Positions 10,237 to 32,000 of a stretch of DNA of 32,000 nucleotides are shown in pieces (the first letter of the stretch is position 1; each line of letters opens with the position of its first letter). This DNA is from Candidatus Methylomirabilis limnetica (GTDB lineage Bacteria > Methylomirabilota > Methylomirabilia > Methylomirabilales > Methylomirabilaceae): assembly GCF_003044035.1 (NCBI RefSeq), contig NZ_NVQC01000023.1, positions 109,301 to 141,300 of the forward strand, in the 5' to 3' direction. A model generated the notes under the pieces. That model made no database searches and was not told the origin of the DNA. It saw only the letters and a list, made by a program, of their open reading frames with translations. The translations under genes were made by a program, and so were the position numbers.

Positions 10237-10382
10237 ATGAACTACCCCGCAGCAAGCTGCTTCGGTATCGTCTTCTGTTCTGGCCCGTCATTCCGTGCTT
10301 GACACGGAATCCAGCCGGGCCCTCTGGATACCGGCTTCCACCGGTATGACGAACTCGCGGCAAGCCGCGGGGAATGAACCCC
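10237..10382 (+). repeat. Hairpin-rich repeat family R2, copy b (long form)
   Basis: ATGAACTACCCCGCAGCAAGCTGC..GTCATTCCGTGCTTGACACGGAATCCAG..GGATACCGGCTTCCACCGGTATGACGAACTCGCGGCAAGCCGCGGGGAATGAACCCC. Nearly identical to the reverse complement of 30065-30208. Confidence 0.8.
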
Positions 10383-20405: not shown

Positions 20406-21755
20406 TCAGGTGGTGCATTTTGCCGAGGAGACGGGCCTTGGAAGCAGCCAAAACAAGAGCAGGGTCCCTATCACCGCGGACAATGCCGACCCAGACAGAA
20501 TCCCCACCTTGGCGGCGTTGAGCAATACGCCCTCCAACGCCAAGCCTGCGATGAATAGCGCCATGGTGAAGCCGATACCTGCCAGTATGCCGCCCGCTGT
20601 AAGTATGCTCCAGTTCACACCCTCAGGCAGCTTGGCAATGCCCAAGCGCACCGCCAGCCAACTAAAACTTACAATGCCTACAGGCTTGCCGACTCCTAGG
20701 CCTACCATGACCGCCACCGCAACGGGTTCACGAAAGTCCGTGAGGTTGATCGATACCCCAGCATTTGCCAACGCAAAGAGGGGCATGATCACAAAGCTCA
20801 CCCACGGGTGCAGTGCGGTCTCAAGCCGTTCAAGGGGGGACAAAATCTCTCGTGCCGCCACCTGGATATCACGCAACGCCGCGTGGTTCTTCCCCTCATT
20901 ACTCCAGCGTTCCCCTTCAACATACGCAGTAAACTGCTGGACGATCGCGTGCAGGCGGCCCGCACTGACCCACACATGGGCCGGCGTGAGCAGACCCAAG
21001 ATCACGCCGGCAATCGTGGCATGGACCCCGGATGCATGGAACGCCAACCAGATCACCGTCCCAACGATGCAATAGATCGGGACACTGCGCACCCCAAGGC
21101 GGGCCAGTCCTCTCACGACACCAAGACCCAGCAAGCCCAAGAAAAGCGCAGCGAGGTTGATGTGGCTTGTATAGCCGATAGCGATGACGAGGATGGCGCC
21201 GACGTCGTCAGCGATCGCCAGCGAAAGGAGGACAATACGCAAGCCCTGCGGGACCCGTGTCCCCAAGACCGCCAGACAACCAACGACAAAAGCGATGTCG
21301 GTCGCCATGGGAATACCCCAGCCGCGCTCGCCGGGCTGTCCGAGTTGGCCCGCGAGATAGAGAGTAGCCGGTACGACCATGCCGCCCGCCGCTGCAATGA
21401 TGGGGAGCGCGGCCGTTCGCATGTCCCTGAGTTCCCCGAGTACTAATTCGCGTTTGACTTCTAAGCCAACCACGAAAAAGAAAATCGCCATGAGACCGTC
21501 GTTGATCCAATGCCTTAAAGAGTGGTTCATCTCAAACGTACCAAACGTGAGACCGAATGGAGTCTTCCACAGGCCCAGAAATGCATTTGCCAAAGGTGAG
21601 TTGGCGAGAGCGAGCGCAAGACATGTAGCAAAAAGCAGGAGAAACCCACTGGCTGCCTCGATACGCAAAAAGCGCGCGAGCGGCTCGATGATGCGATCGA
21701 CCGGTTTCGCGGGCAGGCGAGCCAGGTCGTTGGAGTGTTGAGGTTGTTGCAACAT
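20406..21755 (-). CDS. nhaA: Na+/H+ antiporter NhaA
   Basis: FLRIEAASGFLLLFATCLALALANSP, FFFVVGLEVKRE, and ATDIAFVVG (the NhaA Asp pair). The ATG at 21755 is preferred; the 39-codon upstream extension in the track is not NhaA-like. Confidence 0.85.
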   Translation of the reverse strand: MLQQPQHSNDLARLPAKPVDRIIEPLARFLRIEAASGFLLLFATCLALALANSPLANAFLGLWKTPFGLTFGTFEMNHSLRHWINDGLMAIFFFVVGLEVKRELVLGELRDMRTAALPIIAAAGGMVVPATLYLAGQLGQPGERGWGIPMATDIAFVVGCLAVLGTRVPQGLRIVLLSLAIADDVGAILVIAIGYTSHINLAALFLGLLGLGVVRGLARLGVRSVPIYCIVGTVIWLAFHASGVHATIAGVILGLLTPAHVWVSAGRLHAIVQQFTAYVEGERWSNEGKNHAALRDIQVAAREILSPLERLETALHPWVSFVIMPLFALANAGVSINLTDFREPVAVAVMVGLGVGKPVGIVSFSWLAVRLGIAKLPEGVNWSILTAGGILAGIGFTMALFIAGLALEGVLLNAAKVGILSGSALSAVIGTLLLFWLLPRPVSSAKCTT

Positions 21756-22013
21756 ACTGCGGCACCCAATTCTGACAAGGTCTCTGCCGGTAGAGTCGAA
21801 GAAGGGTGCGGTGGTCTTAGGAACGGGGAATCGCTGTTGTCGGAAGCCTTCGCTGCTGTACCGGCGCCTCAATCCGTCCCATCACTCCGTCTCCCGACTC
21901 TGCTCATCGAACCGGACGTGCGGATTTACCGCATCCGGCTCTCCGACTGGTATTACACACCAGGACCCACGCAGGCGGCGTCACCCGTGGCGCTCCTAGC
22001 GTGGGGATACGCA

Positions 22014-23968: not shown

Positions 23969-24507
23969 TCAACTTAACCGCTTCGACTTCTTTAGCTTTC
24001 TGAGCTTGATCGTATAGTTCCATTCCCCGTGGAACTTATGGGGGTTCGATGTTGAGAGCGGCCAGTTCCTCATTCGAGACCTTGATCTTGAGGGAATACT
24101 CCCGTGTGTCCAGCTTGGCTTTGACCTTCAATCCTGTCTTGGGCATGGTCGCACCGATCTGTTGTACCACAACTTCATGGCTCATCAACGGACGCTCTCT
24201 CCAATTCATGCTGATGTAGGAAAATAACCGATATTCGATCTTGTTCCACCTTCTTGGTGTCGACCGAGATGATGGGGTCGCCCGCCTTCAAGAAATGATG
24301 AACGTGACGACTGAGATGCTGAAATTGCCGGTCGTGATCTGGATAGGCCGCGCCTTCCGCCAGCGTTTTCATGATGCTCTGGTCTCTCAGGGCGATCGGC
24401 TTGCGATCGCCGCCCGTCGCTCGGACCCCGCACCCTGCCGCTACCTGGCGGCTCATCTCCTCGCGCTCAGCGAAGGTGAGTCTCTTGTAAGTTGTCATCC
24501 AGCACAA
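23969..24507 (-). pseudogene. ISAzo13-family (DDE_Tnp_ISAZ013-like) transposase remnant, internally deleted and frameshifted
   Basis: ORF 24175-24507 contains ..AEGAAYPDHDRQFQHLSRHVHHFLKAGDPIISVDTKK.. . A second frame at 23969-24180 gives ..TGLKVKAKLDTREYSLKIKVSNEELAALNIEP, then after a frameshift HKFHGEWNYTIKL..*. Both are motifs I associate with ISAzo13 transposases, which are over 400 aa when intact. Confidence 0.55.
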
Positions 24508-24567: not shown

Positions 24568-24603
24568 AAAAAAAAGCCGCCTCCGCCTCTCGCGGATGGC
24601 GGC
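24568..24603 (-). terminator. Strong Rho-independent terminator
   Basis: Minus strand: GCCGCC-A-TCCGC GAGAG GCGGA GGCGGC followed by TTTTTTTT. This is an 11-bp GC stem with one bulge and a T8 tract. Confidence 0.75.
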
Positions 24604-24805
24604 CCGACCACCCTCTGTCCTCCGAAAATAGCTAGACGCTATCTCCGGACCCCTCTGGAATAACCTGTCACAACGTTATGTCCTAAGAAGTCATTTTGAT
24701 GATCGGCGACAACCTCACAACACCCTACGAAGAGACCATTCGATGCGAACATGCGACCTCAGCAGGCGTCAGCTTCAGATGTGTCGACGCGTTACACTAA
24801 CGCTC
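24604..24805 (-). other. Orphan transcription unit between a duplicated lgt-type promoter and the terminator: candidate sRNA, or mRNA for a 37-aa micro-ORF at 24639-24752
   Basis: No ORF of 60 aa or more. The micro-ORF MFASNGLFVGCCEVVADHQNDFLGHNVVTGYSRGVRR starts after CTGAGGTCGC and shares its first 4 residues and its leader with lgt (MFASPGPF..). Confidence 0.35.
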
Positions 24806-28729: not shown

Positions 28730-30055
28730 TCACGACACCGTTTGATTCTTCGCGAAGAGGATATAGGACCTTGCTCGGCCCTCACGGATGGCCTGCTCGA
28801 CCAGGGCCCGAGGCTCCTTCGCCTTGACTCTTGGCAGGATCGCCTCGAAGAACTGGATGTAGAAATCGTCTGGCACCACGACTACGGAGGCACGCATTGT
28901 GAGCCCCGCCCGGTCGATGGTTCTCGCGTAGCGAACAGTACGGCTTTTACCGGACGCAATCCTGGTGTCAAAGAGTTCTTGTGTCAGATCAAGCGTGACC
29001 TCTCGCCCGATCCGTTCCTCTTGCACACTCTCATTCACCTGCTTACCATCCGTATCTACTAACTCCCATCGGACTATGATCTTCGGCGTAACGTAGGTTG
29101 GGACATGATGCCCAACCCCGGTATTAGCCAGCGTGATTTCAGCCTGAACTTGCTCGCCGACCTGGTAGCGCTCCTTATTTACCGAAAGACGGACGGATAC
29201 GCCTTGCTTGACCATCTCAGGATCATGGATCCCCCGCCATAGATGCCGCCGCTCCGGCATATGGCAGCCCTGACAGGTCATCCCTCCCAGCGCATACGGC
29301 CCCTCTTTCCATTCATTATAGGTGTTTTCGAGCAGCTTACCGTTCAGGGCAGACCCACTCGGCTCGAACTGGTGGCACCCTTTGCAGAACTCGGATCGCT
29401 CAAAGGCCGCCGTCCTGATGGCGCCGGCGTGGGGGAGCTGTGCTACCGGAGCGGAATTCTCAATCGAGCCGTCCCGCTTTGGCGGCCCGAAGCGCTGGTG
29501 CTTCCGAACATGGCACCCGGCACAGGTCAGACCCTTTTGCTGCAGCGAGGCCGAAAAGGCGCGGTTCGTTTTGAACTTCAACGCGGTGCTGCCCCAGACC
29601 CCTGACGCGCTCGGCAATGGCGTCGCAACGGCGCGGCGCTTCTTGAACAGAGAGGGGGAACCACCGCCTTTCTTCACGACCTTCTCCTGCTGCTCGGTGA
29701 GAGGAGCATGACAACTGTAGCAGAGGATCGCCATATTGGGATCACCATGGATAAACTCCATCGTCTGGCCTATCACGCCCGGCCCCATACTTTTACTGTG
29801 GAGGCTGCTGCTCCAATCCTCGTACTGAGTTCGATGGCAGACGGCGCAACTTTCCGGGTCAAGAGATGCCTCTATCGACGAGAAATGGGCGGGCGGCTTA
29901 CCTTGAGGCGGGATGGGCGTCTGCCAATGGCGCGTGAGAAACTCAAGCTGCGCGTCGTCATCGGCAGCGGGTGGCGGGTCTTTCATCGCCCATGCGCCAA
30001 CCGAAAGCCCCAGGCCTGCGATCACGACAGCGGTATACAGAAGAAGCCGTTTCAT
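28730..30055 (-). CDS. Secreted pentaheme c-type cytochrome
   Basis: Five CxxCH motifs (CAVCH, CYSCH, CAGCH, CKGCH, CQGCH). Signal peptide MKRLLLYTAVVIAGLGLSVGAWA from the ATG at 30055. The 77 upstream codons of track ORF 28730-30286 are read-through of repeat R2 (..ALWIPASAGMTNSRQ..). Confidence 0.85.
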   Translation of the reverse strand: MKRLLLYTAVVIAGLGLSVGAWAMKDPPPAADDDAQLEFLTRHWQTPIPPQGKPPAHFSSIEASLDPESCAVCHRTQYEDWSSSLHSKSMGPGVIGQTMEFIHGDPNMAILCYSCHAPLTEQQEKVVKKGGGSPSLFKKRRAVATPLPSASGVWGSTALKFKTNRAFSASLQQKGLTCAGCHVRKHQRFGPPKRDGSIENSAPVAQLPHAGAIRTAAFERSEFCKGCHQFEPSGSALNGKLLENTYNEWKEGPYALGGMTCQGCHMPERRHLWRGIHDPEMVKQGVSVRLSVNKERYQVGEQVQAEITLANTGVGHHVPTYVTPKIIVRWELVDTDGKQVNESVQEERIGREVTLDLTQELFDTRIASGKSRTVRYARTIDRAGLTMRASVVVVPDDFYIQFFEAILPRVKAKEPRALVEQAIREGRARSYILFAKNQTVS

Positions 30056-30064
30056 TCTCGTCGA

Positions 30065-30208
30065 GGGTCGATACCCTGCGGCTTGCCGCGAGTTCGTCAT
30101 ACCGGCGGAAGCCGGTATCCAGAGGGCCCGACTGGATTCCGTGTCAAGCACGGAATGACGGGCCAGTACAGAAGTCGATACCCCGTAGCTTGCCGCGGGG
30201 TAGTTCAT
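30065..30208 (-). repeat. Hairpin-rich repeat family R2, copy d (long form)
   Basis: The reverse complement is nearly identical to 10237-10382. It fills the gap between the TlpA-like gene and the cytochrome gene. Confidence 0.8.
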
Positions 30209-30224
30209 CGATGGCGCCCACTCC

Positions 30225-30893
30225 TTACCTCTTGCGGGGCGTCTTGCCGGCGTCCAAAAGGATTCCGATGAGCCTCTGAGCATCATCTCCCGCCCAATCC
30301 CTCGGCCCGATGCTCCCAGCCACGACCTTCCCGTCGCGATTGATCAGGAGCCGGGTTGGCGTGGCGCGAACCCCGTACAGGTTGGCGACGCTTGAGCTGG
30401 TGTCCACAAGAGCGGGAAAGGTGAGCTTATGCTTGAGCACATAGTTCCGGACCTGGTCGGGCGGCTCGGCGATGTTCACTGCGAGCACGACGAAATCGTT
30501 CTTCTGAAACTGCTGGTAGAGGCGCTCGAGTGAGGGAAACTCCCTCAGGCAATAGCCTCACCAGGTTGCCCAGAAGGTCAGGAAGACGACCTTTCCACGC
30601 TGGTCAGCCAGCCGGACCGACTTCCCTGACACGTCCTGGAGTGTAAAGTCGGGAGCAACCGATTCGTTTCGGAGCTTAATGAACCCGAGGGCTTCCAGGG
30701 AACTATCTATGGAGACGGTTTCCTGACCAGCGCCGACAGAGATAACCGGGGAGGCGACGAGCATACAGCCGAGTAAAAGAACGGCCACCCACCCAGGGCT
30801 CTTTCTTGAGAGGTGTCGGTTTATCTTCACTGCCTTACTCTCACTTCTTGCTACCCACTGTCGCTGGTCTTGCGCCAGCTCTGAGCCAATCAT
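30225..30893 (-). CDS. TlpA/ResA-like membrane-anchored thioredoxin-fold oxidoreductase with in-frame UGA (probable selenocysteine, UxxC active site)
   Basis: Track ORFs 30558-30893 and 30225-30488 are in the same frame. The first ends ..[10 protein letters not shown] at TGA (30560-30558). The read continues [28 protein letters not shown].., giving WATW-U-GYC where this family has W-C-x-x-C. An anchor helix ([13 protein letters not shown]) is present. Confidence 0.7.
30531..30547 (-). promoter_or_regulatory. Candidate bacterial SECIS mini-helix
   Basis: The mRNA reads UGA GGCUAUUGCC UGAGGGA-GUU-UCCCUCA. This is a perfect 7-bp stem with G and U in the apical loop, 17 nt long, starting 10 nt after the UGA. 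Confidence 0.55.
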
Positions 30894-31418: not shown

Positions 31419-32000
31419 TTAGGTAGTAGCCACAACACGAGGAGCAGGCTTGTGAGCCAGGCTCTTCTGCTTCAGGCTGTCCGTGAATCGGATACTCTCC
31501 CAGCCGAACTCGTGGATCGCACAGTGATGGGTGAGCCGATCCAACAGGGCCGCCGTGAGCGAGGCATCGCCGAAGACGCTCGTCCAGTGCGCAAAGGCCA
31601 GGTTCGACGTCACGATCATCGACCCCTTCTCGTAGCGATCTGAAAAGACCTGGAACAACAGTTGGGCCCCCTCGGCAGAAAAGGGGATGTAGCCAACCTC
31701 GTCGATGATGAGGAGCTCATAGCGCGACAGCCTGGCTAACTCGCGCGTGAGCTGCCGCTCCTCTCTCGCCTCGATCAGCGTAGTGGTCAGGTGCGCAGCA
31801 GTCGTGAACAGCACCCGATACCCCTTACGGCAGGCCTCGACACCCAAGACCGTGGCCGCATGCGTCTTTCCCGTACCGTGCTTCCCTAACAGGACCAGGT
31901 TCTCCCGCCGGCTGATGTACTGACACTCAGCGTACGCGCGCACCTGGGTGACCTCGAATCCCGGCCACTTGGTCAGGTCCGTCGTCTCCAGGGTCCTCAG
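31419..32000 (-). CDS. istB: IS21-family helper ATPase IstB, 5' end beyond the window
   Basis: Walker A LLGKHGTGKTH, Walker B LLIIDEVGY, and SMIVTSNLAFAHW..LLDRLTHH. The frame stays open from 31943 to 32000 (..LRTLETTDLTKWPGFEVTQV..). Confidence 0.88.
   Translation of the reverse strand: MRTLETTDLTKWPGFEVTQVRAYAECQYISRRENLVLLGKHGTGKTHAATVLGVEACRKGYRVLFTTAAHLTTTLIEAREERQLTRELARLSRYELLIIDEVGYIPFSAEGAQLLFQVFSDRYEKGSMIVTSNLAFAHWTSVFGDASLTAALLDRLTHHCAIHEFGWESIRFTDSLKQKSLAHKPAPRVVATT

Follow-up and report, generated by a model that had tools for sequence, protein, structure and literature searches.

The window analysed here is a stretch of 32,000 nucleotides from Candidatus Methylomirabilis limnetica (phylum NC10/Methylomirabilota; assembly GCF_003044035.1, contig NZ_NVQC01000023.1, positions 109,301 to 141,300 of the forward strand), and all coordinates given below count from its first nucleotide. 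On the reverse strand, from 30893 to 30225, it contains a gene for a TlpA/ResA-like thioredoxin-fold protein whose frame is interrupted by one TGA codon, and which very probably is a genuine selenoprotein gene with the TGA encoding selenocysteine (Sec). A first-pass annotation of the window had noted that two open reading frames (ORFs) on this strand, 30558–30893 and 30225–30488, lie in the same frame. This was borne out, in that positions 30893 to 30225 form a run of 222 codons in which the TGA at 30560–30558 is the sole internal stop. The features of the gene, including a putative selenocysteine insertion sequence (SECIS), are as follows.

30225–30893 (−): complete predicted selenoprotein gene, 222 codons including Sec111; one frame, single TGA, Pfam matches extending across the TGA
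30893 (−): start codon ATG, or possibly GTG at 30830, which is called in some orthologues; the stop codon is TAA at 30227–30225
30558–30560 (−): in-frame UGA, proposed Sec codon, at the N-terminal, nucleophilic Cys position of the CxxC motif (from the homologue column and the ResA alignment)
30549–30551 (−): resolving Cys of the UxxC motif (U-G-Y-C), TGC codon, from the translation; Cys in all TGA forms
30726–30791 (−): hydrophobic N-terminal segment W35–G56, preceded by the basic stretch KINRHLSRK, read off the translation
30513–30564 (−): putative extended SECIS hairpin, 52 nt, 20 bp, with two internal loops and one bulge; the apical helix is its tip
30531–30547 (−): putative SECIS apical stem-loop UGAGGGA-GUU-UCCCUCA, 17 nt, 7 bp, beginning 10 nt past the UGA; presumed SelB-binding element
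30540–30538 (−): loop GUU of the apical helix

The TGA had been proposed to fall on the first Cys of a W-C-x-x-C motif, and the alignment with Bacillus subtilis ResA (PDB 3c71) agrees with this: the first Cys of the ResA CxxC motif aligns with the TGA, so that U111 and C114 stand opposite the two active-site cysteines. The hydrophobic segment W35–G56, which comprises 22 residues and is kept in the orthologues, is a putative signal peptide or anchor in the membrane; the catalytic domain would accordingly be extracytoplasmic, as in TlpA and ResA.

As had been anticipated, gene callers split the gene. NCBI lists PTL35553.1 (111 aa) and PTL35552.1 (107 aa), both as "hypothetical protein", while the ENA and JGI fragments of the locus are of 111 and 87 or 84 aa. 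Across NCBI, ENA and JGI records, the fragments are labelled either "hypothetical" or "peroxiredoxin". One JGI call, P0167 (264 aa, from the cluster of the 30225–30488 ORF), reads through the TGA and has Trp at this position (…FWATWWGYCLREF…). Presumably an alternative genetic code was used in calling this protein, and the Trp is an artefact of the database by which the selenoprotein is concealed.

Alternation of TGA and Cys codons among homologues

Scans of genome and metagenome collections yielded 74 homologous loci. The exact N-terminal fragment is present on seven contigs from at least four independent samples, and alleles that differ from it at 7–14 nucleotides, mostly in third codon positions, still have the TGA. 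A sequencing error, considered as a trivial explanation of the stop codon, is ruled out by these seven contigs and by the diverged alleles.

The first-pass annotation had suggested aligning homologues in search of Cys/Sec alternation, and such alternation was indeed found: in the same alignment column, nine distinct sequences (42–100% identity to the window protein) have TGA, and 54 distinct homologues have TGC or TGT, with a hairpin showing compensatory changes in the TGA forms (see below). The TGA forms come from at least three lineages and are the following.

Window sequence
L006: Methylomirabilis sp. metagenome-assembled genome (MAG), 86% identity
L023/25, L024/28, L026/27, L030/31 and L032: metagenome variants, 61–86% identity
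L007:3159–3489: Nitrospinota MAG, 43% identity, motif U-P-T-C
L067:2719–3082 (also L072): unassigned metagenome lineage, 42–43% identity, motif U-G-V-C

The active site of the TGA forms reads U-G-Y-C, U-S-Y-C, U-P-H-C, U-P-T-C or U-G-V-C, with the resolving Cys found in every one of them. The Sec forms outside the NC10 clade (L007 and L067/L072) have the hairpin at the same position and with the same GUU loop, and are without a cytochrome neighbour. At L067, a 640-codon open frame upstream of the Sec form was considered as a possible fusion partner and rejected, as it is without any Pfam domain and unlikely to be coding.

In every lineage with TGA, the open frame continues for 103–114 codons past this codon. 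The ratio of nonsynonymous to synonymous substitution rates (dN/dS, or omega), estimated by the Nei–Gojobori method among the TGA sequences of the NC10 clade, was 0.17–0.50 after the TGA and 0.07–0.36 before it, with dS reaching about 1. Since the ratio after the TGA resembles that before it, the downstream half appears to be translated. Relaxed substitution in this half, for which the first-pass annotation had proposed to look, is therefore not what the sequences display: purifying selection is similar on the two sides of the TGA (omega about 0.2–0.3), and all codons are intact.

A hairpin downstream of the TGA

The mini-helix of 17 nt that had been described 10 nt after the UGA is present with the sequence, the position and the 7 bp reported, but it does not stand alone, being part of a longer hairpin of 52 nt. 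When 76 nt from position 30565 were folded, this hairpin had an energy of −29.5 kcal/mol (z = −3.5), and none of 200 shuffled sequences folded equally well. In the lower stem, GCCUC/ACCAG further downstream pairs with the UGA and with the GGC codon for Gly, and this stem is owed partly to the TGA itself and to the unusual Gly codon (GAGGC with GCCUC).

The published model of the bacterial SECIS (bSECIS) specifies an apical loop of 3–9 nt, an upper stem of 4–16 bp, a G at loop position 1 or 2 with G or U after it, a distance of 16–37 nt from UGA to loop and a minimum free energy not above −7.5 kcal/mol (PMC13188914, Fig. 2A). The window hairpin has a loop of 3 nt, GUU (or of 5 nt, if read as A-GUU-U), a stem of 7 bp, the GU dinucleotide, a UGA-to-loop distance of 17 nt and a 23-nt core of −9.9 kcal/mol, and thus lies within all the published constraints. 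Likeness to the SECIS of Escherichia coli fdhF, which had also been put forward, holds for the size of the apical stem-loop (17 nt), for its spacing from the UGA (10 nt as compared with 11 nt), for the G and U in the loop and for the placing of the UGA at the base of a longer hairpin. It does not extend to the bulged U in the 5′ arm of the E. coli element, in place of which the window element has a perfect 7-bp helix and its loop of 3 (or 5) nt.

In the gap-free alignment of the nine TGA sequences (alignment A1), 95% of the cells of the apical 7-bp helix are paired, and double compensatory changes occur at four of its seven pairs. Amino-acid changes in the 5′ arm are matched by changes in the 3′ arm, some of the latter being synonymous. 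For instance, Arg AGG and Pro CCC are replaced by Lys AAG and Pro CCU in L007, and by Ala GCG and Pro CCG-Arg CGC in L067. This pattern of compensation between the arms is what selection on RNA structure within a coding region would be expected to look like.

The hairpin is specific for the TGA forms. The mean number of in-register pairs, out of seven, is 6.7 in the nine TGA forms versus 2.9 in the 54 Cys forms, and the mean folding energy of the 23-nt core is −9.5 versus −3.1 kcal/mol. The GUU loop is present in all nine TGA forms versus three of the 54 Cys forms, and its combination with at least six in-register pairs in eight of nine versus two of 54 (Fisher p = 1e-7, not corrected for phylogeny). 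We also considered whether the hairpin could be a mere by-product of the E-F-P motif encoded at this site. This idea was discarded: the Cys forms L015–L017, which have E-F-P, form only two or three of the seven in-register pairs, so the protein motif alone does not make the hairpin.

Protein family and relation to known systems

With Cys put in place of the stop, the protein matched the Pfam families AhpC-TSA (PF00578; E-value 1e-30, 106.6 bits, cut-off 26), Redoxin (PF08534; 3e-27, 95.5 bits, cut-off 26.6) and Thioredoxin_8 (57 bits, cut-off 27). All of these matches cross the TGA, running from residue 79 to about residue 200. The top match among solved structures was B. subtilis ResA (3c71, E = 2e-28); further TlpA/DsbE-like proteins came next, with Bradyrhizobium TlpA (1jfu) at E = 3e-18. 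On this basis, the product of 30893–30225 (−) is predicted to be a TlpA/ResA-like thioredoxin-fold thiol:disulfide oxidoreductase (PF00578/PF08534, cd02966).

The window protein shares with ResA the FxxFWxTWCxxC...EFP motif and, judging by the anchor predicted from its sequence, would resemble it also in having a membrane-anchored extracytoplasmic thioredoxin fold. It differs from ResA, TlpA and CcmG in having a predicted Sec in place of Cys, and it scores below the cut-offs of the NCBIfam profiles for ResA proper (NF002854; 119.5, cut-off 170) and TlpA proper (NF047696; 83.5, cut-off 230), so that it is related to both but an equivalog of neither. Both ResA and CcmG reduce the disulfides of the CXXCH motifs of apocytochrome c. 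The window gene is followed by a cytochrome c gene.

The first-pass annotation had referred to UxxC proteins of the thioredoxin fold as an established class of bacterial selenoproteins, and several such families are in fact catalogued: peroxiredoxin (Prx)-like thiol:disulfide oxidoreductases (PF00578), thiol-disulfide isomerase-like proteins (cd02966), Redoxin (PF08534) and a UGC-containing TlpA family (Zhang et al., 2006, PMC1794560; Zhang et al., 2026, PMC13188914). The window protein can be placed by domain and motif, PF00578 and UxxC, beside the Prx-like thiol:disulfide oxidoreductase selenoproteins (Zhang et al., 2006), with which its family also shares Sec in place of the first Cys, a SECIS directly downstream within the coding region and a predominance of Cys homologues. 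Its orthologue group differs from them in belonging to the NC10/Methylomirabilis clade, in the motif WATW-U-[GSP]-[YH]-C and in the pairing with a pentahaem cytochrome. In the databases looked at, this NC10 group appears only as fragments. With the ResA-like WAxxUGC selenoprotein family (NF041054), the window protein has in common the W-A-x-x-U-G active site (here W-A-T-W-U-G). It does not belong to that family, reaching 70 bits against a cut-off of 300, and NF041054 describes a "long" protein of 354 residues with the motif UGC, as opposed to 222 residues and U-G-Y-C here. The window gene is thus best described as a putative further member of the known UxxC selenoprotein class that lies outside the ResA, TlpA and NF041054 equivalogs.

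The adjoining cytochrome and the surroundings of the gene

Two further features lie directly downstream of the TlpA-like gene.

28730–30055 (−): c-type cytochrome with five haem motifs (5 × CXXCH), 441 aa from MKRLLLY
30056–30224 (−): structured intergenic spacer of 169 nt with a repeated palindromic element, folding at −72.7 kcal/mol (z = −2.4)

The pair of TlpA-like and cytochrome genes is found in the window, in L006, L023, L024, L026 and L030/31, and in the Cys form L029. It is kept in all loci of the NC10 clade that extend far enough, irrespective of whether they encode Sec or Cys.

The top PDB match of the cytochrome was MccSep/ExtKL (9wt8, E = 4.7e-9), the recently described pentahaem, polysulfide-reducing selenoenzyme of Geobacter, and the protein scored 65 bits on NF040886 (cut-off 250). 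It has Tyr opposite Sec325 (U325) of MccSep and lacks a counterpart of the haem-ligating Cys239. From these comparisons, it is a putative distant homologue of the multihaem selenoprotein MccSep/ExtKL, devoid of the Sec of the latter. In the literature on the Geobacter ext/MccSep cluster, no TlpA-like gene is described.

The spacer inflates the ORF call of the cytochrome to 518 aa. Its palindromic 24-nt core, TTCCGTGCTTGACACGGAATCCAG, recurs exactly at 10291–10314 (+), which suggests a repeat resembling repetitive extragenic palindromic elements or miniature inverted-repeat transposable elements (REP/MITE). On the other side of the selenoprotein gene, at about 500 nt upstream, there is a remnant of an insertion sequence (IS): an ORF for an IS21-type IstB ATPase (31419–31943, −), which matches only positions 83–236 of the 238 of the profile and is therefore N-terminally truncated. 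The upstream context of the gene varies from sample to sample, L003 having a PIN/PhdYeFM toxin–antitoxin pair and L004 and L005 other ORFs, and suggests rearrangement around the selenoprotein gene. Elsewhere in the window, a match to the Rfam family nhaA-I, a class of Na+/Li+ riboswitches, was found at 24594–24652 (−) with 46.3 bits (gathering score 37). The ORF directly downstream of it (24175–24507) is a fragment of a DDE_Tnp_ISAZ013 transposase, and a gene for an NhaA antiporter (20406–21872) lies about 2.7 kb further on. An insertion may have separated this riboswitch from its usual target.

Discussion

Our data support the proposal of the first-pass annotation that the gene at 30893–30225 (−) probably encodes a selenoprotein. 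The alternation of Cys and Sec codons in one column, the purifying selection downstream of the TGA and the covariation of the SECIS converge on this reading, which we regard as very likely to be correct. That the organism may use Sec is suggested by its relatives. Table S2 of Peng et al. (2016), a study that defines Sec utilisation by the presence of SelD, SelA and SelB homologues, lists the congener Ca. M. oxyfera as Sec-utilising, with six known selenoproteins, and one Methylomirabilota MAG is predicted to hold 63 selenoprotein genes (2026 review, PMC13188914). These reports are supportive at the level of the genus and of the phylum. In the literature on Methylomirabilis in combination with selenocysteine or selenoproteins, we found nothing beyond Table S2 of Peng et al. 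(2016) and a remark about the fmd operon, and the Secmarker and deep-Sep papers make no mention of Methylomirabilis in their supplements.

Several observations weigh against the assignment and should be set out together. Within the 32-kb window, ARAGORN detected no tRNA-Sec (and no tRNA at all), and none of 20 window ORFs searched against Pfam proved to be selA, selB or selD. No SECIS family was obtained from Rfam, either on the whole window at the gathering threshold or on positions 30400–30650 at E ≤ 10, where only noise was returned, although this null result is uninformative because the bacterial SECIS models in Rfam are lineage-specific. The hairpin itself is without the bulged U of the fdhF element, its apical loop has the minimum size that the model allows, its lower stem shows poor conservation (pairing in 79% of cells of the TGA forms), and the helix is in part a consequence of the conserved residues R-E-F-P-S. 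The proposed substrate is deduced from homology and synteny. Lastly, two Cys homologues also have a 6-bp apical helix with the GUU loop:

L001:2023–2101: Cys form with retained apical helix
L029:3288–3366: Cys form with retained apical helix

These two (L001/P0001 and L029) are the Cys sequences nearest to the window protein, with 61–64% identity, a WCPYC motif and a TGC codon, and L001 is without the lower stem. In a neighbour-joining tree (without support values) that has the TGA form of Nitrospinota as its outgroup, both fall inside the TGA clade. The simplest reading is that their helix is probably a fossil SECIS, left behind by a reversion from Sec to Cys. Fossil elements of this kind after Sec-to-Cys reversion have already been described (Zhang et al., 2006, PMC1794560).

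The other ways of explaining the interrupted frame have to be compared with these data. It may be supposed that the gene is a pseudogene, in which a nonsense mutation turned the TGC or TGT of a Cys-type TlpA into TGA, leaving the downstream half to decay. A single base change is all that is needed for this, the closest full-length proteins in the databases (P0001–P0003, 60–64% identity) carry WCPYC, IS remnants lie nearby (IstB, 31419–31943), and the databases annotate fragments. But the TGA is common to lineages that have diverged to a dS of about 0.6–1.0 and to proteins only 42–43% identical, no TGA form has a second stop or a frameshift, omega downstream of the TGA (about 0.2–0.3) is like that upstream, and compensatory changes of the RNA are placed exactly downstream of the TGA; decay is thus extremely unlikely. 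Hardly better placed is the possibility that two products are made, with termination at the UGA and a C-terminal half translated from an internal start (GTG at 30488 or similar), giving either a split thioredoxin or a functional N-terminal fragment. ORF finders do return a GTG-initiated ORF of 87 aa, and a functional split protein would likewise conserve both of its halves. Against this, the 69 nt between the TGA and the GTG are conserved at the protein level and hold the resolving Cys, the split would cut through the active-site motif, gene callers dispute the internal start (84, 87 or 107 aa), and the Cys homologues are single polypeptides, all of which makes a split product highly unlikely.

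A selenium-free recoding of the UGA, in which a near-cognate tRNA would insert Trp or Cys with stimulation by the hairpin, or in which TGA would be reassigned, must also be weighed. Hairpins 3′ of stop codons can stimulate read-through generally, and Trp is what the JGI translation P0167 shows at the TGA. However, TGA terminates four of 18 confident genes of the window (those for NhaA, a P-type ATPase, the cytochrome and a cyclase), and also the TlpA gene itself in L006 and L030–L032. Because TGA is an ordinary stop in these genes, the genetic code is standard, and reassignment of the codon is ruled out. Moreover, the TGA stands in the column of the catalytic Cys, where only Cys or Sec would keep the function, the hairpin agrees with the SelB-type bSECIS model, down to the G-U motif in its loop, and the genus is reported to be Sec-utilising. 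Recoding without selenium is, on balance, very unlikely.

If the TGA is a Sec codon, expression of the gene can be pictured from the established bacterial mechanism. On reaching the UGA at 30560–30558, the ribosome would have the hairpin just downstream, with its 7-bp apical helix and its G-U loop 17 nt past the UGA. The hairpin would recruit SelB-GTP-Sec-tRNA(Sec), and Sec would be inserted instead of termination taking place. The full-length protein of 222 residues would then be exported, or anchored through its N-terminal hydrophobic segment, if the predicted topology is right. In the W-U-G-Y-C motif, Sec111 would act as the nucleophile, reducing disulfides through a selenenylsulfide with the resolving Cys114. 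Considering the functions of ResA, CcmG and TlpA together with the gene pair, the likeliest substrates would be the CXXCH cysteines of apocytochromes c, perhaps specifically those of the adjoining pentahaem cytochrome. By this analogy, the most likely role of the protein would be that of an extracytoplasmic thiol:disulfide reductase that keeps the CXXCH motifs of apocytochrome reduced.

A more speculative idea concerns the cytochrome, which lacks both Sec325 and Cys239 of MccSep. Rather than serving cytochrome maturation in general, the TlpA-like selenoprotein could be its dedicated selenol partner acting in trans. We consider this improbable; if it were true, nitrite-dependent methanotrophs would possess a selenium-dependent, two-protein periplasmic reductase.

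The finding does not change what is known of selenoprotein families or of the recoding mechanism. It would correct a mis-annotation recurring in NCBI, ENA and JGI, where two fragments should be read as one selenoprotein, and it provides a small, clean data set that illustrates the covariation of a SECIS within a coding region and the reversion from Sec to Cys; it comprises nine Sec and 54 Cys forms, together with a nested Cys clade that has a putative fossil hairpin. For Methylomirabilis, an environmentally important nitrite-dependent methane oxidiser, it would add a periplasmic Sec-dependent thiol reductase, and would imply a selenium requirement for part of the maintenance of its cytochromes or of its redox balance.

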